A stretch of 61,906 nt of DNA, counting the filler, from Catajapyx aquilonaris (taxonomy: Eukaryota), in NCBI GenBank assembly GCA_000934665.2. It is 2 parts of 2 records of this genome, joined end to end, with 100 filler letters (N's around TTAATTAATTAA, not from the genome) between each part and the next. Parts side by side here need not be neighbours in the genome. Positions count along the whole stretch, not along the records: positions 30,985 to 61,906 come from JYFJ02004613.1; 1 more part is not named here. One strand, written 5' to 3'. The notes under the pieces are model-generated. The model made no database searches, was not told where the DNA came from, and saw nothing but the letters and a program-made list of their open reading frames with translations. Shown here piece after piece: positions 30,885-57,357 of this stretch. Both the position numbers and the translations under genes were made by a program. The stretch's first letter is position 1, and every line of letters starts with the position of its first letter.

Positions 30885-30984
30885 NNNNNNNNNNNNNNNN
30901 NNNNNNNNNNNNNNNNNNNNNNNNNNNNTTAATTAATTAANNNNNNNNNNNNNNNNNNNNNNNNNNNNNNNNNNNNNNNNNNNN
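30885..30984. other. Assembly gap: 44 N + TTAATTAATTAA linker + 44 N
   Basis: Symmetric N runs around a 12-mer with stops in all six frames; artificial. Confidence 0.95.
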
Positions 30985-31729
30985 AACCCTGCTTAACCCC
31001 AACACTAATGTTAAACCAGTCAGAGAAACCCCCACTAGTTCTAACACAAGCTCTACTCTCTTCATACAATGACTTTACAGCAGCCTCCAACAAGCGGCCC
31101 TTCACTCCATAGAGACTCAGAACTTCCCCCAAACCTTCCCTACTTACTGTGTCATATGCTTTCTCTAAGTCTACAAAGGCAACAAAAACCTTCTTGTTTA
31201 CAGCTAAATACTTTTCTATCACGAGTCTCATACAGAATATCTGATCTACACAACTCTTACCCGACATAAACCCACTCTGAATATTCAGTATTCTCTGACT
31301 TGTGACCCTCTTAACTCTTTCTATCAAAACCTTAGCATACACTTTCCCTGGTACACTTAACAAACTAATGCCACGATAATTCTTGCAGTCACACACATCT
31401 CCCTTACCCTTATACAGAGGTACTATAATAGCATCCCTCCAATCCCTAGGAGCTACACCATTATCAAAAGAAACCCTACATAAATTAGTCAAAAAAGTAA
31501 CTACATCACCCCCGCCACACCTCACAATTTCCGAAGAAATAGCATCAACCCCAGGGGATTTACCTACTTTAAGTCCTAAAGCAGCAGCTGCAACTTCCTT
31601 CTTAACAATATCCCCACAACCATCATTACTTGGTACAACATCCCCAATTAAACTTACAGATACATCAACACTGGCCTTACCACTTGCTGACAGCAAGTCC
31701 TTAAAATACTCTCCCCAGCGCCCTTTCAG
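30985..31729 (-). mobile_element. Non-LTR retrotransposon (RTE-clade LINE) ORF fragment: linker plus N-terminal part of reverse transcriptase; 5'-truncated, 3' end lost in the gap
   Basis: Motifs RWGEYFKDLL, GKSPGVD, PRDWRDAIIVPLYKGKGD, NYRGISLLSVPGKVYAKVL, QSGF, DQIF, FVDLEKAYDTV and VGVKQG, characteristic of RTE-type RT, in an uninterrupted frame. Confidence 0.92.
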
Positions 31730-33192
31730 TTGCTACAACCCTATAATTATCCAAACGGGGTCTTGCATATAGTTTTCAAGTAACAGTCCTGCATACTTCA
31801 CCTATATACATACACTGACATTAGCGCGTGACTCCTGTCCCAACCCAATGCACTCGAGAAGGCCTATATTTGTGTGAACCTATTTCTAATCTATAAACAA
31901 TAACAACATTGTAACCTTCCCTTATTAAAAGTTGCGACCTATATGTATTTTGAAAGAAATCAATTAGGATGTTGAATTAATACTGGTCACTTCATAAGGT
32001 TTCACTTATTTTGAAGCTACAAGTAATTTAAAAGCTTAGAGCTTCCTTGAAATATACCCTATCATATATCATTTTATCAGCTCAAATTCCTATATCTCTC
32101 CTGTTCCAGCTTGTTGATAGAAATATCAAGTGAGTCATTTTATGAGAAGCCATTATTAGTATACTTTTCATTCTCCAATAAAGGATGAGAATTATCTTTT
32201 GTGACTGGAATATCGCTTGCAGATGATGAAATCAAACGTGAATATCAATGCACCTGTTATTGAATCACGTTACCTGCAAGCTATACAGCACAAATATATA
32301 GTTACCGTATATTTTCAAAATCTAGACTCCGGGTCAAATAATGATTTTCTGTCAAAATCACGCTGTATAATATAGGGAGGGTCCAGGCCTTGCTTATACA
32401 ACAATAAAATAAAAAATAGAAACTTGAGCACAAGAACATTCTTACCACCCAATAATGAGTGACGTACCTGAGTGTTGAACTGGAATTGAACAGGATTAAA
32501 CACATCAAGCAATGAAATGTACACTTAAAATCGACCTGAAATCCATCCAGGTCACGCGCCTCTCTCTCAAACGTATTGGCATTACTCTTTGTTGCCAACT
32601 TGAACAATGTGCTTAATGTACGAAAAATGACTATCAGTTTCGAGCGTGGTTTCGAGTACGTATAAAGACTGTAAAAATGTTGGCTATAGTTACAGCCAAC
32701 GTCCGCCTGATTTTCTTTTCTGCCTCACAACAGTTATAGTATTAAGTCTGGCAAAGACGAATCCTAAGTGTATCGTAATTTTCAGCGGTACACTGCAGTA
32801 ATTATGCAATGTCCGCCACCTGATATGAACCTACTATTAAATCGCTGGGGTCTTTTTCCGTGGTTTCATCCTACGATATCGTCGGTAGAATAAGCTCAAG
32901 TGGTCCGCAAAAGATTCGGGTTTAAAAGGCCAACCTGGGCAGCAATGGTCGGGGTCATCGTACAGCACCTTTGAATCCACCCTCGCACCGCCGCCTTATA
33001 TCCGGATGACCTTTTCGAACCCTTTCTCACCTTCAACCTTCGAAGCATCGATAATCATGCAGCACGATGATGTGACCATGTGGCTTAATGGCACGTGAGG
33101 TGCATAGGCGCACGTGACACTGTACAAGCCGTCACATCATGACCACATGATTAGAATAATGTAGTCTTCCGTCCAGCGGTGGCAGTGCGGTA

Positions 33193-38967: not shown

Positions 38968-40898
38968 CTATGGAGTAATCAATTCAACCCTAAAAGACAC
39001 GCATTTGCTTCTCATCAAGCTGTAGCTGTTGTCAAATGTGAGTGTGTCTGGAACATGAAACGCAAGTGATTTAAATAATGGACCATCCTGCCCCAGCACA
39101 CATCAGTTTCAAAATAAGCATCTTACATTCACCACACTCCAAAAGATCAGTCTTTCCTTCCATCAGCGAGACATGGCTGTCAACTTTTCTGTATGGTGCC
39201 ACATCATCAAATGCGTTGCCACTGTTACGACGAACCACAAAGCCAATGTCATGCGATTCAGTTTTAAATGCCCACCTGCCAATAATTAATTACACAAGAG
39301 CTTTCAAAGTGACATCTTTGCAGGCTTCACAGTTCACTTACTTCAAATAGGAATTGGCAACGGTTACGTCATACTTCAAGCTGAAATGTTCCCCTTTTGC
39401 AATCACAACTGAGGTGAAAGGAATTTCAAATGAAACATTCTTCTTTTGATTCGTGCAATTGCTTTTGGCGGGCTGCTTCTCTCCCGCTTTACCCTGCATA
39501 GAAAGCTAGGTGAAATGAATGCAGCTACTCATGCAGAGGCATTACGAGAAACAGTAAGGAATGCGGGACAGTAAGCAATTTTAGAATGATCCTGAACTAA
39601 CTTGAGATGAACAAGAAATACTTCCGAGTGTGGTCACTCCAGTTCCTCCTTCTCCTCTCATCCTCGTCAAGTGGTTGGGAAGCTGATCGTGGTGAATGAG
39701 ATTCAAAAGTGCGGGCAGCCACTTTGAGCGGTCGGAATTGAACACCTCCACCTTTGCCTTGGTCCTCTCACTCATGAATGGTTGCATCAGATTATACACC
39801 ACAGCAAATGCCTTAGGAGCTGCAACCAGCCATCAACATTTCAAAACAATAACCCCAACGAAAATCGCCTCACCATTTATTACGAAGCACTTCTTGAGAA
39901 TCTCTGGATAATTATCGTCAGTTAATTTCGCTGCCTCACACAGGTACTTCAAAGCTGTAAAGCAAAGTTATTCCTCATTATTACAACCCACCATAGTGTG
40001 GTTGTTGTGCAAATCGAAGCAAATGAGTCTCACATGGCTTGTACAGGTAATCTCTCAGGCAGAATCCTTGCATGTCGATTATGGTGATGTGCCGGGAAAT
40101 TGTTCTCCCCAGCTTATTTGTCTGTGCCGCCATCTCCCTCCTGCTCTGCTCCAAGATGAGGATGGACTGGCGCAGCATATCCTCCAGGCCTACAGACTGC
40201 ACCAGACCTTTTATGTCCATCTTGCCGTAATTCAGGAGCCACACTAGATCAAAGAGGGAAAGAGTATCATAAGTTTCATGTCTAGTGCAGAGTAGATGGT
40301 TCTGCTCAGACAATACACACGGTATTCTTACCTGGGCATCCATCCAGATCGTGGCCAACAATTTCTCTAGGGTAGTATTTTTCCAAGACCTCTGGACGGT
40401 TCCACATTAATATGTCATCGGCCTTGACCTTCTTTCTCCAATGCAACGACTGAAATGATAGTGACGCAAAAAACATTGCATTATAGTTCCTGACAAGTAC
40501 CCGCACAAAATGTGATTAGTGATGTGATACAGCAAACCTCTCGGAACATCAGTTCAGCTTTCTGACAGTCATAATTTCTCGCTGCAATGAAGATGCAATG
40601 TGTTCAAGAAAAGATGCGGACTTGGAAATGCTGTTTTCCATACATACTGTACCATTCTTGTGCAGGCGAGACTACTCACCTTTGAGCCACTTCAGCAAGT
40701 AATCATCATTTTGAGATGGTTGTACAACATCAGCAATTAAGCGTTTAAACTGCAATGCATTACACACTGTGTGTAAGAGTAGGGCAGGCTCAGTGAAATG
40801 ACATGCAATTGATTTACCACATGCAACTAGGATTTCAAAAGAAGTTTCCCACATACCTTGGCCAAGGCATCCTTTTGCTGTGCACTACACGCAGCCAT
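38968..40898 (-). CDS. SEC14L2: SEC14-like protein 2/3/4 family (CRAL-TRIO N + CRAL-TRIO + GOLD domain), ~387 aa, 10 coding exons
   Basis: Exons 40857-40898, 40680-40749, 40538-40581, 40332-40449, 40034-40243, 39874-39954, 39602-39819, 39342-39493, 39127-39275, 38968-39047; all GT-AG and phase-consistent, 1164 nt in total. Motifs QKDALAKF, DDYLLKWLKARNYD, GHDLDGCPVW, NYPEILKKCFVINAPKAF, YNLMQPFMSERT, and GOLD motifs WAFKTESHDIGF and TFDNSYS. Confidence 0.92.
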
Positions 40899-43224: not shown

Positions 43225-44990
<1,766 letters not shown>

Positions 44991-47278: not shown

Positions 47279-50200
47279 ATGGGAGCGGCAGCCTCTGCTT
47301 CGTACATTCCGGAGAAGGACTCTGGGCAGCAGCAAGGAGGCGAGGACGACGACGAAGATGCAGTTCCGCTCCAGGACGTGAGGGCACAGAATGTCATGCG
47401 GGCTGTCAGCACGGTAACTTTTATTAAACTTCTCTCTGACTCTGTGGACATTCTGGTGACAAAAGTCAACAAAACATGGCATAAAACATATAGCATTGGC
47501 GCTATGCTGCACTCATTCGAAAAAAAAACTCAAGCAGGAGTTTGTTAATTAAGAGTTGCAGACAAGCAGCTGTGTAACCATATCTTGACAGTTGTTGCTG
47601 AGGCTGTCTTTGGTGGGAAGTGTGCAATTAGCGCAAGCAACTGTCATATGTTCCAGATGAGGATGTGCACATGTGACGTCACATTGAAATGGTCTCATTT
47701 ATGCAGCCTTGCCTCACAGAAATTACTGGCCATGTGAAGGACTATTTCCTCTAATAATTAGAGGCTGCCATAAAGTAGTCTACACATCATTGAGATCTTG
47801 CATCAGGCATTGTCATTGAGATCTCAAGTAGAAAAGGTAACAGGGTAGAACAAGAGAGAGGCTAGGTAGAACAAGATGCATATGAGTGTTTAAAAAAAAT
47901 GCTAATAGGAATGGTATTCAAATTTAATATGGCAAACTGTCTTGCCATTGTGGGGCAATGGCATTATTTAAAAAGCTAAAAAAGTCACTTTGACTGTTAC
48001 ATTACTCATAACTAGATGAAAGAGATGCTGCACATGGCGGGAGAACTCCACAGTAAATTTTCCGTAACGATCCTTCAAAGTGAGTCATGGATTCACAATA
48101 TTTTGTGAACAGAATTACGTATTTTAAAAATAATATATTATCTACCTGTCACAAAGCAGGACAGTCAAATTCCTTCTTTGACCTCTAGCTGTTTGGATGG
48201 TTTCGTGGTGGGGAGAGGTAAACCGGAGTAAATTTTTCCTGAGTTAATTTGCATTAAACCTAAGAGTTGCGTGTATTATTGCAGGTTCTGGATGAGGTCC
48301 TCCGCTGCAGCTCTGAGGGTGACTCGTCCCAGCTGGCTCAGATCCTGGATGACCTGGGCCCGGGAGAGTGCACCGTCCGCCTCCCAACCCTGTGTGATGC
48401 AGAGGGGCAGACTGCCCTCCACCTGGCCACCTTGGAAGGTCACCCTGAATGCGTCACAGTCCTTCTCGACAAAGGGGACAGCCAGCAGGTCGGAGTGACT
48501 GACTCGCAGGGAATGACAGCGCTGCACTTGGCTGCCAGGCAGGGACATGCTCACATCCTCGCAATGCTGCTGCAGCAAAAGGTACTGATGCTTTTATGAC
48601 ATGTTCCGTGGACATTGGACGTGACTAATCGTACTTCTTATTTTATAAAGCCATCTGCGGAGGTATTGGCCATGCGCGCAGGGGAATCTGGCAACACAGC
48701 CCTTCATGAGTGCGTGGAGGGAGGCCATGTTGAGTGTGTCCGCCTTCTGGTCCAGGCTGGCTCGCAGTGGTGGTGGCGTAACAAGAAGGGATGCACCGCT
48801 GTCCACTTGGCTGCCTGGTGGGGTCATCTTGAACTCCTGTCGCACTTCATGAAAGAAGGAGGTACGCATAGCTGGAATGTGGGGCGAGGTAAGCATAGCA
48901 GGGAAGTGATGGCATTTCCTTCTTCTGCAATTAAGACGGAGACAGGGTTGTGGACCCAGAGGACCCTGACCACCAAGGGAAGACCCTGGTCCATCTGGCA
49001 GCGGAGTTTGATCATCCCGAGGTCCTTCGCTGGCTGTTTGGGGAGCACCTGAGCTGCCAGGTGCAGCCGACGGATGCAGATGGGGAGACACCCATGCATC
49101 TGGCTGCAAGAAACAACAACCTGCTGATTGCATCCATATTAGTCGACTCAGGTCATGACCCATACCTCAGGAATCTGGAGGGGAAGCGACCTGTTGACCT
49201 GGCCATGGAGGAGGGCAACACGCAGGTGGAAGAGTGGCTCAGGAGTCCTTTCTCCGATCTTCCAAACAGGGAGAGGTGAGGCTGTTCCTCTCCGCTTCCT
49301 GACCACTTGAATTTGTGGCACAGTCTTTACAGTAATTATGGATTGTTTTGCTGAGCATTTACTGAATTTTCTTTTGGTAGCACTGGCTCAACCCTTGCAG
49401 TGGAATCTGACTTGCCAGTGGATGAACCTGACTCGAGTGACCTTCTGGAACCAATTCAGTCTGGAAACGTTGAGCTTCTGACCTCCCTGCTGGACTCCCT
49501 TTCTTCTGGAGAATCCATCCCGGACTCATGCTTGCACTTGTCCTGCTCACTGGGGCAGGATGGTCCCACGCTGCTGCTGCTGGAGAGAGGGTGCGACCAT
49601 TCAGCGCATCATGGCCCTGACCTTTCAACCCCTGTCCACCAGGCAGCCATTGGTGGGCATGCTTCATGCTTGCAACTGCTTCTGGACAACGGGGCTTCCC
49701 CTGACCTGCGAATGGAGCGTGACCTCACCCCTTTGCACTGTGCAGCCTTACATGGCCATCCTGATTGCCTTCGAGTGCTGCTGTCCTCTGGTGCTGACCC
49801 ATCTGCAATGAATGAGACTGGTGACACACCTTTGCATGTTGCGACCTGGCAGGGACGGCTGGAATGTGTGGCCGTCCTGATTGAGGGTGGAGCCTCACTG
49901 GATGCGTCTAATCGAAGGGGGAGAACAGCACTGCATGAGGCAGCCTGGCAAGGCAATGTTGACCTAACGACCATGCTGGTGCAGGCTGGTGCGTCACTGG
50001 ACGTGCGGGGTGCTTCTGGAGGCACACCTCTTCATGATGCCGTCGAGAATGGCAAGTTGGATGCAGTTGCCATCCTGGTCCGCAGTGGTGCGAGCCTGGC
50101 AGCCAGGAACGGGATGGGACGCACTGCAATGCACCAGGCTGCAGAGTTTGGGCACCTCAACATTTTGCAGGTCAGTAGTCTGCAGTAATCAGTAGGTCAG

Positions 50201-53200
50201 TTGACTTCTCCCTAATTCCCATGTTTCTTAGTGCTAGACCCATGTGACTCAAAAAGTGTGGCAAGTTGCTCTTTTCCTGCTCTGAAATATGAACTGCAAT
50301 ACCTAATGATACGCTGCCAACCAGCCAGCATATAAGAAACACCCTGTAGTCCTATTAGTGATTTGGCTGCCGAGTTCAAAGACCTCCTATATAAAGTAAT
50401 CCTCTGTTTCCCAGGATATCACCTCAGAAGTTTGTTGATGTTATTACGGCGTGCCCTCTATATCGGTCACACTTTTTATTTGTTTCAATATTTACAATTC
50501 CCAGTATTACAGTGATTAACTTGTGCCTCGTGTTAATGCTGCAGTGTTTATGGCAGGAAGGTCATTGAAGGATCCGTAACTGATGGAGCTTCCAAGGTCG
50601 CACTTGTAGTCCTGCACGTGGAAAGGCAACTGACCACAGCGTTCTTTGCGCTTTCATACCAGAATGCAAGGATGCTGATGACCCATCCTGCTACTACTAG
50701 TCCAAAAGGACCGTACAATTTTTCTTTGGTTAGCGGCTTCCCCTCTTCTTCCTCGTCATCACCCATATTGCTGTCAGCTGCGTTGGCTTCAAAATTGTGT
50801 ACAGACTGGAGGAGATTCATGTAACCTTCCATGTCCATGTATTGTTGGAAGAACCCTCCCTCAAACATGTATGACATGCCCTGACTGAAGGCCATGAAGG
50901 ATGGAAAGTCCTTCAGGTATGCTAATCCTGAGTATATGTTGATGGCAACTTCAGTCTTGTCAAAATATTGGATGCGTCCAAGCAGGTCGGTAAACATCAA
51001 CAGCTTAAGCTTCAAGAAGTTTTGCACTCCGAGGCAGGCTGCCTTGGTTTGAGAGCACCTCGTGATGCACTCGTCGTATGTCGAGTACAGCACCATCCTC
51101 TCCTTGATGGTCTGGTGCAGTGGAAGGTCCAAGTCTCGCAGGAACACAGCATATGCAAGTCCGTTGATGTTCTCAGCGCCGATCTCGTACTCCATGTCCA
51201 GCAGTTCAGCGAAGGTCACAGGGAGCACTTCCTTCCTGGGGATGGCCACGAATGAGAAGACTGCCTCCTGGTAGCCGCAGGTGATGACCATGGCCAGGAA
51301 GAGCCAGAAGGCAAGGAAGGTGCGGAATGCATCTCCTGCAGGGACCTCCCGGTTGGGAAGCTGCTCCAGGAAGGACTGGAGGAGGTACTGGCACACGTAG
51401 GCCAGGGGACTGGGGGGCCCTTCCCAGTCAGGGTCGAACAGGGACCTCCTTCTCAGGAGGAGCCAGGCCGAGAGGATGCCGATCGCTGTTCCGAACAGGA
51501 TGCAGAGCCAGACTTGGGCCGAGTAGGGCCAGAATATGGTCTGCCAGGACCAGACCGGGCCAGCATGTGCCCGAGTGAAAGAGAATCCAGTGTAGAAGAA
51601 GGGAAATGCAAAGTTGACATGCGTCATGGAGTCTGCTTGGTAAAGGGCTACTATTGAATCTGCGTGTCCTTTTATAAGTTCACCAATGTATCCCAGCCAT
51701 GTCCCGTTGCTCATCCTGCTCATGTATATTTCCTCTGGAGTGATATCTTTTGGGTATGCTTCCCATCCAAAATTGAAATTTTTACCCAGTTCATGTGCAG
51801 CCATTATGAAGCTTTCCAGTTTCCAAAATCCTTTCTCTTGGATCATTTTCTCCACTCCCTCACTAGTAACCTTCTTAATAAAAGGCATTCTCATGTTCTT
51901 TTTGTTCAAGTTCCATGTCATATCAGGAAAGAGTTTCGTGTTGGGAGGGAGAGGATGAGTTCCCAGGAACATTCGTGTGGGATTGCCATTGTCACAGTAG
52001 AAGCAGATGGTGTACAGTTTTATCGACTGATGGGAAGGTTGAAGTGCAACCTTGAACTTCCATCCCGCGGCAACATCTAGCTGCAAGGCCTGTGGAGATG
52101 GCTCCTGCCTGGTCCACACCACAAAGTAGTCCCGAAAAGCCTGCGCCCTGATGCTGAATGCATGATGCAGACTCAGTCGTCTGAAGCCATCCACCGTGTT
52201 GCTAGTCAAGAAGTGCACCACACAGTCCCCACCCGATGTCTTCTTCCGCTCGTACAAGTCCCACAGCTCCCTCACACTTTGGTGCTTGGGAATCTGGAAG
52301 TGCTCTGGGGCCTGGAATGCCATGGAAAATCTGTCCTCTTCACTTAAATTCCTCAATAGGTGTTGGAAGGGTTCTGGTAACTGAATGAAGTCATGCACAA
52401 GCACTAAACTGCATGTGGGCAGTGCTTGTGCCATAATGTTTGTGAGAAAGTCGGCTGTCAGCTGCACCGAGAGCAGTTCCTGTGACGCACAAAATGAAAT
52501 TAAAATATATGCAAGTGATATGTACTGGAACGCTGCCATGGTGCTGTACACAACTTCTGGCACCGTTATGTGAATCCAGCAAACTGAGTGGTGACGCTTC
52601 CTGCAGTGACCACGTCATGAGTTCCTGAAGGCTAGAATCAAGTGATTTTGGTTGTTCTGGTTGTTTTCGTTATCTCTGCGTCACTGGTAAATTGCAGCCT
52701 AGTGTCAATATTGTCGTAGGTGGCCTGGCTCTCACTGGAGGCAATTTGTGTGGGTAATTTATGAGGAAGATGACCATGAGGATTGTGTAATTGGACATTT
52801 CTGTGGCACAGGAAGAGCCCCTCTGTCATTTCAGAGCTGACAGCTATCTATTTCCCAGCACTTTGGGCTAAATCGGTTGGGCAACTTTCCCAGTTAAACC
52901 GTACAGTTCTCAGGCTAATATTACCAGAACTGGTGGGCTTCTCTGATGCTTTCAGAGATATGGTTGCCTTTGGTGATGGTCTTTCCTGACGCAGTCAATT
53001 TATAAATAATTGATTGTCCCCCAAATGCTGTCATTATGTGCTGACACGGTTTGCTCTGTTCGCGTCGTAGGAGGCAAGGAAGAGGCGGGAACTATTAAAG
53101 GCAAGAAAGTTACGTCTAGGAATAGGGTTTCAATATTGGTTGAAGGATGCGAAAGGTTGACAATGGATCAAATGCCATCTTTGCAAGTAACTTCCAAATA

Positions 53201-56200
53201 AGTAAAGAGATGAATTTATTGCTTTTAGGTTTTAGCCGGTGAGTCTCGAATTAGTCTGGAGGATGCTGATGACCTGGGATCAACGCCCCTTCACCTGTCG
53301 TGTCAGAGAGGTCACCTGCGGGTGGCCAGGCAGCTGCTGGAGTGGGGCTGCAGGGTGGGGCCAAGGGACTGCCGCGCCTCAACTCCTCTTCACCTGGCTT
53401 CCATGGGGGGTCATCAGGAGGTTGCCGACTTGCTTCTGGGGGCAAGGGCTGACCCAGCGGCCAGGGACCAGGTTGGGAAAAGGCCGTGCGACCTTGCGCA
53501 AGAGCAAGGTAACATGCAACGGATTTCTTTCCTCTTCTTCATTATGTGGTCGCACCACAGGCAGAAGTTGAGATGCAAAATGTGAGTTGAATTGTAATTG
53601 TTACTGTTCTAGGTTGGGTTGGACTTGCAAGGAGTTTGGCAAAAGGAGTTGGAGGGAACATCGCAAAATCAGATGAAGGGGATGAGGGATCAATCCTCCA
53701 GCTCCATGCGGCAGTAAAGGAGGGGAAGGTTGGGGCCGTCAGGAGGCTGCTGGAGGAAGGGGAGGACCTCAACGAGCAGGATGCCAGTGGGAACTGTGCA
53801 CTCCATCTGGCAGCACTCTTCGGACACAGGCAAATGGTAACTAGAGAACATGGCAGGCTTACTATCTGATTGATTGACAGTGTGGTTGAGATGGAAGGAG
53901 TCCCTTCAGGATGAATGGCAGTGACAGAAATCAGTCCACATAACTAACGCACTTATGTTTTATTCAGGTGTTTCACCTCCTTCGGTGTGGGGCCAACCAG
54001 ACCTTGCACAACAACTGTGGCAACACTGCTGCCCACCTAGCTGTCCTGCACAACCACCCGTCCATCTTGGGGCTTCTCTCTCGGCACGACCAAAATGCCT
54101 TCCTGTTCCAAGTCAACTCACAGAACGAGGAGGGCTGCACCCCGTTACACTATGCTGTCATGGGATCAACGACACCCGCGTCTGTGTCTGAGCATGACAA
54201 GAAGCCAGCCGCTGCTCCAACCATGCGCAACAATGGTGCTCCAACCGCAATGGAGGCCTTACTGCAGGACAGGCCCAGCAGGGTAAGAATCAATGCTCGC
54301 AATGCTCAGGGTTACACTGCTCTGCACCTTGCTGCATTCAGGAAGGCCAAAAGTGAGGCAGAGATTCTCCTGAAGCACCTGGGTGATCCCCGGTGTATTG
54401 TTGATGGCGACATGACAGAAGAGCTCATAGAAGATGGTATGCCCGTGTTGGTGCCACTAATGGAAGGTCAAAAGGTTAGGCTGGAGGAAGAATACACGCA
54501 AGTTGGAATGCCAGTTGATGCGCTATTCCGGGCCCTGTACAGCGAGCGGGATGACCTCTTTTTGTACCTTCTTTCAAAGGGCATTGTGGTGCCGACAATG
54601 GGCAGGGGCACTGGGGAAAGGGGTCGCCTTGGTAGTCTCAGTGGGTGGAAGGGAAGAGGCAGAGGAAGTGTTGACGGGGTGTTGAGGGCCAGGGGTGGTG
54701 CCAGCTTTGAGATTGTCCAACCCTGGAGTAAAGGGGAGGAGCTGAACCAGAGCGATGGCCGCTACACACTCCTGCAACTGGCCAGCCTGCTGGGGATGGA
54801 CACCTGTGTTGATGCATTGTTGAGAGCAGGTGCTGATCCCAATGGTGTGTCTGAGGTGTGTCCATTGACGCCCCTACTGTTGGCTGCTTCTTGGGGTCAC
54901 CATCGCGTCCTTGCAAGCCTCCAGGGTTGCAGACGCGTCCGCATGCATGAGACCACTGCTACTGGCGAGAACATTCTTCACATATTGGCTAAAGGCATCC
55001 ACAACACAGTCAAGGAGCAGAGCTTTTTCTCACAGTATGACCTTGACCCGGAACGGCAGGACTTTGATGCTAGCATGCAGCAGGTGCTCACTGGACTCGA
55101 GTCGAAAGGAAGTTTCCCGTTTTATGTTAATGACGAGGATGCAGATGGCTGCAGTCCACTTGTGGTGGCAGCTACTCACCGCTCTTCTGCATCTGTGGTC
55201 CACCTCCTGGCCCAAGGAGCTGACCCATGGCAGACTGACCCAACAGGTCGGCAGGCCGTTGACAAGATTCCAGCTCGCACACTCAACACCTACTTGGACA
55301 GGTGCATTCAGTTGTCTGAAAAGAGCCATCATCCACGTGTGCTCGTCAACTTTTCACTGCTGCGTCCCCCAAGTGAAGGTCCTGATGAGTCTCAACGGTT
55401 AGAGCTCTTCCGGACTTCCCACAAGCACCGACAACTTCTGAAACACCCTGTGTTTGCCACGTTCCTTCAGCTGAAATGGTATTGCCTACGCGGCTGCTTT
55501 TGGGCCAATCTTCTCCTGTACCTGGTGTTTGAGGTTGCATGGTCCACCCACGTTGTCTTGCAGCTTAAAGGCTACAACAAAGGTAACCCAGGTGAGACAA
55601 TTGCTTCTGTCTTCACCATTTGCAGCCAAGCTGCCCTTGCTTTTTTGGTCATACGTGAAACATGTCAGTTTTTGGGCGCTCCTAAGCGGTACTTCCTCAG
55701 CCTCGAGAACTGGATGGAATTGGGTATTATTGGTTGTGCAACTACTGATTTTATATTGGACTCGGTTGGGAGTAAAATGGATGACATTGCAGTCATTGGC
55801 CTGTTGTTGAGTTGGGTTGAGCTAGTCCTACTGATTGGTCGCTTCCCAGCTTTAGCCCGCTACATTGAAATGTTCTCCGCTGTTCTTAAGAACTACTTGA
55901 GTTTTCTGGTTGTGTTTGCTGCGTTAATTATTGGGTTTGTCCTGTGTTTTCATCTGACACTTGGACGCACTTGCACAAAGCCAGAAGATCCAGCAGAGCA
56001 ACCTGATTGCTTTTTCAAGTTGCCTGAACTTATTGGCCTGAAGACAACAGTGATGATGATTGGTGAGCTGGAATTCCACGACGCCAACCTGGACACCCCA
56101 ACAACGCGGCTGCTGTACCTCTTGTTCCTCTTCCTTGTCGTCTTGGTACTCATGAATCTCCTGAATGCACTGGCTGTCAGTGACACTCAGGAAATTGCAG

Positions 56201-56823
56201 AACAGGCTGAACTCTACGGGCTTCTCTCTCGCATCGAGCTGGTCTGCTACATCGAGTCTTTCTTCTCGTGGCTGGAACGTTGGCGATTTGGCAGATTCCA
56301 GTGGGGTAAATGGCTGTGGAGAAAATTCAGAGGCGGAGTCCTCCTGTTTCCAAGGCTTCCGAGAGGGACTGTGAGCATTGATCTGTCCAACGGGCGGGTT
56401 GGGGTTGTGGGTGGGAGTGGTAAGTCCACTGTTGAGCTTGGTTGGAGGCTCAGGAAGGAGGTGGTTGAATCCCTGAGGGAGTTGGTGGAGGCGAAGCAGA
56501 AGGAAGAGGAGGAGAGCAAGGAAAAGGGGGGTGCCAGGGAGCTGAGGAGGGAAGTGAAGGCTCTTCAAGAACCAATGCTGGAGCTGCAGGAGGACCTGGA
56601 GGACGGACTGGAGCTCCTGGATCGGAAGCTGGAACAGCTTATGTGTGCCCCCTCATTCCTGAAGGAAGGAGAGATGGGACAGGGAGAGGGGCACTGGGTG
56701 GTTCAGGATTTTGGTCCACGGCTGGACAGGCTGGAAGATCAATTCATGAACCTCAGGAACGACCTGCAGCACCAGCTTGGACTCATGCTGAGTGTTCTGC
56801 AAGCTCTCAAGGATTCTGCCTAA
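47279..56823 (+). CDS. TRPA-family cation channel, Painless-like pore region, with very long ankyrin-repeat N-terminus, ~1710 aa, 8 coding exons
   Basis: Exons 47279-47413, 48285-48581, 48651-48861, 48936-49275, 49381-50170, 53229-53508, 53613-53836 and 53968-56823; all GT-AG and phase-consistent, 5133 nt in total. Many TPLH/TALH ankyrin repeats, pre-S1 LLKHPV..FLQLKW, six hydrophobic segments, pore KTTVMMIGELEF, S6/TRP-like LMNLLNALAVSDTQEI..QAEL (recalled Painless signature LNGLAVSDTQ...AEL) and a C-terminal coiled coil. An in-frame TGA at 47273 precedes the ATG. Confidence 0.88.
50548..52539 (-). CDS. Divergent ionotropic receptor (IR, variant iGluR), intronless, ~663 aa, nested antisense in the TRPA intron
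   Basis: Single ORF from accATGG with a signal-peptide-like N-terminus; S1 NGTWLGYIGEL..GHAD; M1 WPYSAQVWLCIL; M3 RTFLAFWLFLAMVITCGYQEAVFSFVAIP; last TM PLTKEKLYGPFGLVVAGWVISILAFWYE; AATAAA at 50475-50480 (-). Confidence 0.9.
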   Translation of the reverse strand: MAAFQYISLAYILISFCASQELLSVQLTADFLTNIMAQALPTCSLVLVHDFIQLPEPFQHLLRNLSEEDRFSMAFQAPEHFQIPKHQSVRELWDLYERKKTSGGDCVVHFLTSNTVDGFRRLSLHHAFSIRAQAFRDYFVVWTRQEPSPQALQLDVAAGWKFKVALQPSHQSIKLYTICFYCDNGNPTRMFLGTHPLPPNTKLFPDMTWNLNKKNMRMPFIKKVTSEGVEKMIQEKGFWKLESFIMAAHELGKNFNFGWEAYPKDITPEEIYMSRMSNGTWLGYIGELIKGHADSIVALYQADSMTHVNFAFPFFYTGFSFTRAHAGPVWSWQTIFWPYSAQVWLCILFGTAIGILSAWLLLRRRSLFDPDWEGPPSPLAYVCQYLLQSFLEQLPNREVPAGDAFRTFLAFWLFLAMVITCGYQEAVFSFVAIPRKEVLPVTFAELLDMEYEIGAENINGLAYAVFLRDLDLPLHQTIKERMVLYSTYDECITRCSQTKAACLGVQNFLKLKLLMFTDLLGRIQYFDKTEVAINIYSGLAYLKDFPSFMAFSQGMSYMFEGGFFQQYMDMEGYMNLLQSVHNFEANAADSNMGDDEEEEGKPLTKEKLYGPFGLVVAGWVISILAFWYESAKNAVVSCLSTCRTTSATLEAPSVTDPSMTFLP

Positions 56824-57351: not shown

Positions 57352-57357
57352 AATAAA
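57352..57357 (+). terminator. Candidate polyadenylation signal (AATAAA) of the TRPA gene
   Basis: AATAAA ~530 nt after the stop, followed by T-rich sequence. Confidence 0.4.

Follow-up and report, generated by a model that had tools for sequence, protein, structure and literature searches.

It is debated whether the ankyrin domain of TRPA channels serves heat sensing, localisation or force transmission. The TRP channel NompC has 29 ankyrin repeats in one continuous array. A crab NompC is given 28 repeats in the available part of PMC10795286. Drosophila Painless carries eight repeats, four of them degenerate, and according to the accessible sections of PMC3266251 its ankyrin domain is needed for thermal but not for mechanical nociception; the same sections report that mechanical nociception was rescued by the short isoform and not by the one with the ankyrin domain. 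Crab and crayfish Painless proteins are 857–985 aa long in the portions available of PMC10795286 and PMC13483504. Here we describe a locus of Catajapyx aquilonaris (assembly GCA_000934665.2) that appears to combine a Painless-type channel with two further ankyrin modules. It lies within a window, the whole stretch of DNA analysed, of 61,906 nucleotides including filler, of which positions 30,985 to 61,906 come from JYFJ02004613.1.

Gene structure

Splice-site reading and conceptual splicing of eight exons between 47279 and 56823 on the plus strand give 5097 bases, or 1698 codons, with a single stop at the end (Table 1). Replacing the exon 3 donor at 48861 with one at 48888 yields 1707 aa (9 aa more), and a second phase-0 donor of exon 1 at 47413 would add 12 aa; the product of about 1710 aa from eight phase-compatible exons in the original prediction is thus reproducible. 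All seven introns run from GT to AG with fitting phases, and GC content is 36–49% in introns versus 53–59% in exons. No stop interrupts any of the eight exons, whose frames include ones of 277 and 959 codons. The three junctions singled out earlier (49275/49381, 50170/53229 and 53508/53613) have a GT past each donor and a pyrimidine tract and AG ahead of the acceptor, and their splice signals are canonical. A stop codon overlaps the exon 4 donor, so that a retained intron would terminate the protein there, and an in-frame TAG forms part of the exon 6 acceptor, which leaves this exon not extendable upstream. A Pfam scan of the exon reading frames detected ankyrin families in seven of the eight and no Pfam family in exon 1, which is the least certain exon of the predicted model.

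Table 1. Features of the locus, with positions counted along the window; exons 1 to 8, joined in this order, make up the gene model
Feature	Position	Strand	Content
Exon 1	47279..47377	+	ATG straight after an in-frame stop; 33 aa with Gly2, Ser6 and an acidic run; phase-0 donor
Exon 2	48285..48581	+	N-cap-like helix pair, repeat A1, beginning of A2
Exon 3	48651..48861	+	Remainder of A2, A3, beginning of A4
Exon 4	48936..49275	+	Remainder of A4, A5, A6, RPVDLA cap repeat, start of A-B linker
Exon 5	49381..50170	+	A-B linker, uncertain B0/B1, confident B2–B6, first half of B7
Intron 5	50171..53228	+	3058 bases; hosts the nested minus-strand gene
Nested intronless gene	50548..52539	-	Variant ionotropic-glutamate-receptor-like protein, 663 aa from first Met; AATAAA of its own about 70 bases downstream of the stop
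Exon 6	53229..53508	+	Second half of B7, B8, B9, RPCDLA cap repeat
Exon 7	53613..53836	+	B-C linker, C0, first half of C1; start of the Painless-like match
Exon 8	53968..56823	+	Remainder of module C (C1–C9), pre-S1 region, S1–S6, C-terminal helices, stop codon
Ion_trans (S1–S6 and pore)	55552..56208	+	In exon 8; residues 537–755 of the frame starting at 53944
Two long C-terminal helices	56530..56817	+	Helices 855–896 and 915–950 of exon 8, predicted structure
Candidate polyadenylation signal	57352..57357	+	First AATAAA past the stop, about 530 bases beyond it

A Painless-type channel core

Exon 8 contains a Pfam Ion_trans domain (E 5.9e-12), and residues 65–997 of a 1011-aa protein whose cluster includes a thrips protein (P0001) align to model residues 693–1638 (E 5.5e-67). 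By this measure exons 7 and 8 alone are a complete Painless-like unit. The best 150 of 4207 matches in an exhaustive search are mostly channels of 700–1100 aa, and 7 of the 30 matches whose names were looked up are called painless or painless-like, at an identity to any relative of only 24–38%. In a tree of the membrane region (38 rows, without Waterwitch, TRPA5 or HsTRPA references) the channel falls in a 22-row clade that holds all painless-named rows, with support of 88/99, a value below the star threshold of the tool, and both its own branch (1.25) and that of its sister are long. Outside it lie a TRPA1 clade of 12 rows (98/92) and a pyrexia clade of 2 (100/99), and the NompC-like rows form the outgroup on a branch of length 3.5. 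These NompC-like rows (3 of the 38) gave no BLAST hit with the membrane region at E 1e-3, and the PDB sequence matches (E up to 0.01) include no NompC chain, 9 of the 12 being TRPA1 (best 7ykr, E 7.4e-16). An AlphaFold2 model of exon 8 (pLDDT 82.5, pTM 0.74) gave a similar picture in Foldseek, with TRPA1 at ranks 1–13 and NompC only at rank 14.

Among the columns that are at least 85% conserved in 81 relatives, 65 of 74 are kept and most changes are conservative; one of the nine departures is an Ala in S6 in place of a 96%-conserved Gly. The two long predicted C-terminal helices are probably a tetramer coiled coil as in TRPA1, a candidate assignment aided by the part of PMC10993193 available. 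Taken together, the sequence comparisons support an arthropod-like gene whose core would belong with the Painless-type TRPA channels rather than with TRPA1, pyrexia or TRPN. This agrees with the earlier description of the S6 region as Painless-like and not TRPN-like.

Ankyrin repeats in three blocks

Upstream of this core, exons 1–6 add about 670 residues in two modules, A with 6 clear repeats and caps and B with 8 clear repeats and caps. Both cap motifs previously noted at the module ends are present, RPVDLA at model residues 287–292 and RPCDLA at 664–669. Sixteen canonical 33-mers were counted (6 in A, 8 in B and 2 in C), although the profile behind these 16 strong matches was built from the window's own 16 repeats and is to that extent circular; the independent measures are the Pfam counts and the structure models. 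Three further repeat matches (703, 863 and 1047) score above all of 50 shuffles and four weaker ones do not. Pfam PF00023 stretches number 13 here, as against 16 and 16 in two NompC-like proteins, 8 and 6 in two TRPA1 proteins and 1–3 in Painless-type channels. About 24 repeats are supported overall, and the 25–29 estimated by eye in the original prediction reach 29 only when caps at both ends (N and C) are counted along with the degenerate units.

The repeats are parted into three blocks by two acidic or Ser/Gly-rich linkers of about 25–35 residues each, placed after the cap repeats. Modules A and B are near consensus and share 38.7% identity, compared with 27–32% to module C, and no internal duplication was found at the DNA level. 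The fold of exon 5 is a single-sequence prediction whose first 81 residues are unreliable, which leaves B0 and B1 uncertain. Sequence matches in module C comprise 2 canonical and 3 weak ones, and the predicted structure places hairpins for C2–C9 in exon 8, with a disordered break at exon-8 residues 207–250 (pLDDT <50). Sequence matches and predicted structure combined give module C about 8–10 partly degenerate repeats with a stack break after the fifth, as expected of the Painless clade. The longest unbroken run in the whole protein would be about 9–11 repeats.

Relatives of the long form

No ortholog of the long form was found in word-index searches with exon 8, against proteins of similar and of greater length, or in the exhaustive search, the closest match having 38% identity. 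Of the 120 proteins of at least 1680 aa listed, 6 carry Ion_trans as we read them: two forms of one Hydra protein, a tunicate TRPA1 bearing additional domains, and NompC-like proteins. Exon 5 retrieved generic ankyrins only (28–38% identity), none of the 120 listed having Ion_trans, and among these matches there is no donor family or ortholog for modules A and B. A full-text search of the literature, supplementary tables aside (e.g. Table S5 of PMC10993193), found no Painless-type channel with more than about 10 repeats.

Expanded Painless-like gene models do occur in the mealybug Planococcus citri (XP_065199516.1, 1261 aa; XP_065199491.1, 1402 aa; XP_065199503.1, 1303 aa; XP_065199530.1, 1109 aa) and in the locust Schistocerca (XP_046994257.1, 1157 aa), all of them automatic predictions like the model presented here. 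They share with it a Painless-clade pore and a lengthened N-terminal ankyrin region; the 1261-aa mealybug protein has 9 PF00023 stretches and the locust protein is the sister of the channel in the tree (92/72), both branches being long. Their additions differ in that they repeat the first block of Painless itself or consist of an internal series of similar repeats, and in extending over at most about 350 residues, read from alignment offsets, compared with about 670 here. Judged by these models, N-terminal ankyrin expansion of Painless-like channels is not unique, and none of the public models reaches the length predicted here. The possibility raised earlier that such a long architecture is already common holds only in part: the expansion as such occurs in mealybug and locust gene models, its extent does not, and the described crab and crayfish proteins are no longer than 985 aa.

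One transcript or two

Several features bear on whether modules A and B belong to the same mRNA as the channel. At the two module borders only 105 and 104 bases of intron separate the exons, too little room for a gene end and a new promoter. Exon 5 closes with the first half of a repeat and exon 6 opens with its second half, and the T-x-x-H motifs at 563 and 597 keep a spacing of 34 residues across junction 5/6, as those at 733 and 766 keep one of 33 across junction 7/8. Leave-one-out repeat scores are higher for spliced than for read-through sequence at both junctions (30.0 vs 26.3 at 5/6; 21.4 vs 16.3 at 7/8), though such profile scores tell the two apart only weakly. None of exons 5, 6, 7 and 8 opens with a Met or has one close to its start. 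A six-frame scan of the whole window confined ankyrin-like coding (score at least 12) to the exons of the model, the best score elsewhere being 10.5, and within intron 5 it found no ankyrin-like coding on either strand. The short module-border introns, the repeat in register across the 3-kb intron, the absence of a start codon opening exons 5–8 and the lack of any other ankyrin exon together suggest that all eight exons would be spliced into a single mRNA encoding the long protein of about 1700 aa.

The strongest competing explanation, which we consider unlikely but far from negligible, is that the locus comprises two transcription units or uses an internal promoter alone. Exons 1–5 would then encode an ankyrin-only protein that reads into intron 5 up to a stop at 50186–50188, and a standard Painless-like channel of about 1000–1060 aa would begin at a promoter or first exon of intron 5 that has escaped detection, possibly with the in-frame Met inside exon 6 as its start codon, leaving the 1700-aa protein a rare isoform or one that exists on paper only. 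Gene predictors are known to merge genes wrongly where such a gene as the nested one lies between exons. This intact opposite-strand gene, with its own polyadenylation signal, occupies the gap between exons 5 and 6 and does not belong to the channel. The closest relatives measure about 1000 aa (900–1030 aa for the nearest, transcript-derived ones included), and public models do fuse neighbouring channel genes, as in P0241 (1603 aa), which is two pyrexia-like channels in tandem and not a long ankyrin array. Drosophila painless, moreover, varies its N-terminus by alternative starts and a downstream promoter, according to the accessible part of PMC3266251.

Against two units, exon 6 opens in the middle of a repeat, immediately behind an in-frame stop, and must be joined in phase 0 to an exon that contributes the missing half; exon 5 does this in register, and intron 5 offers no other ankyrin-like coding. 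The N-termini of 15 Painless-like proteins, used as queries, found no Painless-type leader exon in intron 5, the matches at E ≤0.01 (5 of the 15 queries) falling in exons 6 and 7, and no AATAAA occurs for 1.7 kb past exon 5. A short isoform could also coexist with the long one, and its existence alone would leave the long form standing. The earlier proposal that two extra ankyrin modules were joined to a Painless core is upheld to the extent that a complete unit is preceded by about 670 residues of well-formed repeats, with a single gene favoured by the sequence.

Possible function of the added modules

We regard it as reasonably probable that the locus is a single eight-exon gene for a Painless-clade TRPA cation channel subunit of about 1700 aa in which the added modules are regulatory rather than a spring. 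Exons 7 and 8 would provide about 10 ankyrin repeats in two sub-blocks, S1–S6 with a pore helix and the long C-terminal helices, and gating would probably be as in Painless, by noxious heat or irritants. Modules A and B would be two near-consensus modules, each closed by its cap repeat and joined by a short linker to the next block; from this architecture of separate capped blocks we posit that they are probably cytoplasmic docking or regulatory platforms, which may set localisation, stability, partner binding or thermal set-point instead of forming a single continuous gating spring. The channel N-terminus, with Gly2 and Ser6, resembles a myristoylation site, and the distal end of the arm may accordingly be located at the membrane.

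A NompC-like tethered mechanosensor, in which 25–29 repeats act as one gating spring on a Painless-type pore in a convergent TRPN-like design within TRPA, is quite improbable. The total repeat number does near that of NompC by the PF00023 counts, modules A and B are near consensus and stackable, and the N-terminus carries a possible lipid-anchor motif. The two linkers past the cap repeats and the disordered stretch in module C nonetheless leave three blocks, the last of them broken, rather than one stack, and the analogy with a NompC-sized spring in the original prediction does not hold up. The membrane region is, at the level tested, unrelated to TRPN, and the isoform rescue reported in part of PMC3266251 likewise speaks against a mechanical role for the ankyrin domain of Painless.

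A variant for which we see very little prospect is that a Painless-clade pore independently gained a lipid-anchored, three-block ankyrin arm that works as a segmented tether, transmitting to the gate either strain from the membrane or cytoskeleton or large changes of shape driven by heat. Its N-terminus would be myristoylated and inserted in the membrane, and tethered TRP sensors would then have arisen a second time, convergently, outside TRPN. Least probable of all is that the locus, in whole or in its upstream ankyrin exons, is what remains of a duplicated ankyrin gene that no longer functions, as modules A and B without an ortholog among the matches listed, the long membrane-region branch and the changed conserved columns, the S6 Gly included, might suggest, but the open exons with their long frames and intact splice sites, the large majority of conserved columns kept, the near-consensus repeats and the preserved GC contrast between exons and introns all speak against decay.

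If the favoured single regulatory gene is correct, a Painless-type channel in which separable modules bring the repeats to about three times the usual count would be a natural test case for the role of the ankyrin domain, and the full-length channel could be compared with forms lacking module A or modules A and B in gating, trafficking and partners. Combined with the mealybug and locust expansions, it suggests a Painless N-terminus to which ankyrin modules are easily added. Should the long transcript not exist, the locus would be an ordinary Painless-like gene beside an ankyrin-repeat gene.

Comparison with TRPA1, NompC and Painless

TRPA1 (Drosophila 7ykr/7yks, human 6pqo and others) is the best solved-structure match by both sequence and fold, but the membrane region of the channel lies outside the TRPA1 clade and TRPA1 has one array of 16–17 repeats (title of 7ykr). 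With NompC (PDB 5vkq) the predicted protein shares a TRP pore preceded by a very long ankyrin region and a comparable number of Pfam-detectable repeats; it differs in having three blocks with linkers where NompC has one continuous array, and the membrane regions of the two are without a sequence match. With Drosophila Painless and the Painless-like channels of insects and crustaceans the predicted protein shares the painless-named clade of the membrane region, an S6 motif of the same type, long C-terminal helices and a degenerate repeat stack broken mid-way, the break in module C matching the AR5/AR6 break that the available part of PMC10993193 reports for Painless. From Painless the channel is set apart by the Ala in place of the conserved S6 Gly and by its extra N-terminal residues, which hold 14 clear additional repeats in two capped modules.

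Gene structure and exon borders

The plus strand between 47279 and 56823 carries a series of ankyrin-encoding open frames and, after them, a frame of 959 codons that encodes both ankyrin repeats and an ion-transport domain; together they are modelled here as eight exons with a spliced length of 1698 aa. Use of donor 48888 instead would give 1707 aa, and donor 47413 would add 12 aa. Junctions 4/5, 5/6 and 6/7 of the original prediction are borne out by GT donors, pyrimidine-rich AG acceptors and compatible phases, as are the remaining borders of the model, and GC content is 53–59% in exons versus 36–49% in introns. The exon 4 donor is overlapped by a TGA stop (49273–49279). Retention of intron 4 would leave an ankyrin-only product of ~317 aa, that is, module A (exons 2–4) alone, possibly as a regulated short product.

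Coordinates of features in the window
Feature	Position	Strand	Remarks
Exon 1	47279–47377	+	least certain exon
Exon 2	48285–48581	+	
Exon 3	48651–48861	+	
Exon 4	48936–49275	+	
Exon 5	49381–50170	+	
Exon 6	53229–53508	+	
Exon 7	53613–53836	+	
Exon 8	53968–56823	+	
Nested gene in intron 5	50548–52539	-	intact, intronless
Protein arginine methyltransferase gene	43225–44990	-	PRMT_C and methyltransferase domains, two exons
Reverse-transcriptase fragment	30929–31732	-	RVT_1, E 1.3e-13
Weak CRAL/TRIO match	39981–40406	-	E 3.9e-4, under cut-off; 141-codon frame

A Painless-like channel core

On sequence comparison, exons 7 and 8 correspond to one whole Painless-like protein. Residues 65–997 of P0001, a public protein of 1011 aa with a Megalurothrips protein in its cluster, align with model residues 693–1638 (27.5% identity, E 5.5e-67). 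An exhaustive search returned 4207 matches at E ≤ 0.001, including 216 at E ≤ 1e-30 (top E 7.8e-64; identities 26–40% across matched stretches). Cluster names, which are automatic annotations, were looked up for 30 matches; the 14 that were named include seven painless or painless-like, three TRPA1-like and one copepod protein with mixed names. A tree of the membrane region (38 rows, 343 columns, without Waterwitch, HsTRPA and TRPA5 references) places the window inside a 22-row clade holding every painless-named row (support 88/99), separate from a TRPA1 clade (12 rows, 98/92) and a pyrexia clade (2 rows, 100/99) and with NompC-like rows as outgroup, which agrees with the original prediction of a Painless core. 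The exact position within the painless clade is unsure because the window's branch (1.25) and that of its sister, a Schistocerca protein of 1157 aa, are both long.

Of the 12 distinct PDB sequences that the membrane region matched by sequence, nine are TRPA1 (top match Drosophila TRPA1, 7.4e-16), three are TRPV and none is NompC. BLAST gave no match to three NompC-like proteins and matched all 35 other labelled proteins. The AlphaFold2 model of exon 8 (82 aligned sequences; pLDDT 82.5, pTM 0.74) has TRPA1 structures as fold matches 1–13 and NompC at rank 14. The channel looks intact, since the window keeps 65 of the 74 columns conserved in at least 85% of 81 relatives and its nine deviations are mostly conservative. 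One of the nine is in the S6 motif, where exon 8 residue 734 (56167–56169) is Ala in the window and Gly in 96% of these relatives. The last repeat of module C (exons 7–8) has Val where 95% of relatives have the His of T-P-L-H.

One transcript or two

The eight exons probably form a single long transcript, judging from the genomic evidence. Two units, or a short-only channel, seem rather unlikely, even though the closest relatives are ~1000 aa long and the nested gene in intron 5 raises the prior for such a split. The module-border introns 4/5 and 6/7 measure 105 and 104 bases and so have no space for a gene end, a new promoter and a first exon, and a Met is lacking at or close to the start of each of exons 5 to 8. 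A gene boundary is possible solely in intron 5 (3058 bases). The acceptor of exon 6 includes an in-frame TAG, directly after which the exon begins. An ankyrin repeat is split between the exons on either side of intron 5, its first half closing exon 5 and the matching second half opening exon 6; T-x-x-H motifs across this junction stand 34 residues apart, the usual repeat period, and junction 7/8 behaves in the same way (33). Leave-one-out repeat scores, however, discriminate only weakly between the spliced and unspliced readings. A six-frame ankyrin-profile scan found such coding confined to the model's exons (top score elsewhere 10.5) and absent from intron 5. No leader exon was found in that intron with N-terminal sequences from 15 Painless-like proteins as queries. 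No AATAAA lies within 1.7 kb after exon 5; one is present 530 bases past the final stop.

Neighbouring channel genes do get merged in public annotations, a point in favour of two units illustrated by P0241. This second-best match (1603 aa) consists of two near-identical pyrexia-like channels, head to tail, and most likely results from tandem duplicates being merged into one gene model. Alongside the long transcript that we favour, a short isoform could well exist; three N-terminal variants of Drosophila painless are described (PMC3266251), made by alternative splicing and a downstream promoter.

Nested and neighbouring genes

The nested gene, antisense to the channel gene, has a 663-codon frame counted from the first Met and its own AATAAA ~70 bases beyond the stop. 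Weak, consistent matches to ionotropic glutamate receptors, Pfam Lig_chan matches under curated cut-offs and a kainate receptor subunit as top PDB match (E 1.2e-7) indicate that its predicted product is a divergent ionotropic-glutamate-receptor-like (variant IR-type) protein. The arginine methyltransferase gene points away from the channel gene, and the two may share a bidirectional promoter region in the gap of ~2.3 kb. The RVT_1 fragment adjoins two 44-base N runs (30885–30928 and 30941–30984) and probably represents a retroelement where the assembly has a gap. The CRAL/TRIO frame may belong to another gene as one of its exons.

Ankyrin repeats and their origin

Sixteen canonical 33-residue repeats are evident in the sequence (six in A, eight in B, the module of exons 5–6, and two in C), and a profile built from them, circular for those sixteen, adds three matches above all 50 shuffles (starts 703, 863 and 1047) and four weaker ones (342, 804, 1018 and 1157). 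The exon 8 model has helix hairpins C2–C9 and a disordered break at exon-8 residues 207–250; counting C0 and C1 of exon 7, module C comprises two sub-blocks with about ten repeats in all. This agrees with published descriptions of Painless, which give eight repeats, of which four are degenerate (PMC3266251), and an interruption of the stack after the fifth (PMC10993193). For exon 5, a single-sequence fold gives confident structure over residues 82–263, taking in five and a half hairpins from B2 to halfway through B7, but not over the first 81 residues, which leaves B0 and B1 uncertain. Against the 25–29 repeats originally predicted, about 24 are supported, and 29 is reached only with the A N-cap, the RPVDLA and RPCDLA cap repeats, B0 and B1. 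A non-circular yardstick is the number of Pfam PF00023 stretches with E ≤ 0.01: 13 in the exon pieces of the window, despite four repeats being cut by junctions, compared with 16 and 16 in NompC-like proteins (n=2), 8 and 6 in TRPA1 (n=2), 3, 1 and 3 in Painless-type proteins (n=3) and 9 in a 1261-aa Planococcus protein.

Modules A and B share 38.7% identity over 230 aa (E 1.6e-42), versus 27–32% for either with C, and one added module may have arisen by duplication of the other long ago; no DNA-level duplicate of the region was found within the window. Among the matches listed for exon 5 there are generic ankyrins only (28–38% identity), so no donor family for the added modules can be named.

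Proposed working of the channel

The core would form a tetrameric cation channel, like other TRPA channels, with two long C-terminal helices of the model as candidates for a coiled coil. The added modules A and B are each closed by a cap repeat and followed by a linker of ~25–35 residues rich in acidic residues, Ser and Gly. The array is not one stack, and module C also has an internal break. Because cap repeats, the two linkers and this break interrupt it, a single NompC-like gating spring is unlikely. We take Gly2 and Ser6 of the predicted N-terminus in exon 1 to resemble a myristoylation signal. In the best reading, modules A and B would be docking or regulatory platforms tuning localisation, stability, partners or thermal gating. 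In Drosophila, PMC3266251 reports rescue of thermal nociception, and no rescue of mechanical nociception, by the Painless isoform that carries the repeats, which also localises better to dendrites.

Comparison with other Painless-like channels

Crab and crayfish Painless proteins described so far are 857–985 aa (PMC10795286, PMC13483504). Among the best 150 of 4207 matches, 11 pore-bearing ones have the pore at least 190 residues beyond the query-based expectation, a count read from alignment offsets in which one is the tandem merge P0241; they include four Planococcus citri models (1109–1402 aa) and a Schistocerca model (1157 aa). Duplicated N-terminal ankyrin blocks occur in the Painless-like gene models P0260, P0269, P0304 and P0325 of the mealybug Planococcus citri, and an extended N-terminal ankyrin region in P0321 of the locust Schistocerca. 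N-terminal growth of Painless-like channels is therefore not unique to the window, and in insects expansion of the Painless N-terminus may be a recurrent event. As to whether the long architecture is already common, smaller expansions exist in these insect models, but no equal in length and module type was found among the best 150 of 4207 matches, nor a description of such a protein in the literature searched. The extra parts in Planococcus citri and Schistocerca are a duplicated first block of Painless itself or a run of similar repeats, and they add at most ~350 residues, whereas the window adds ~670.
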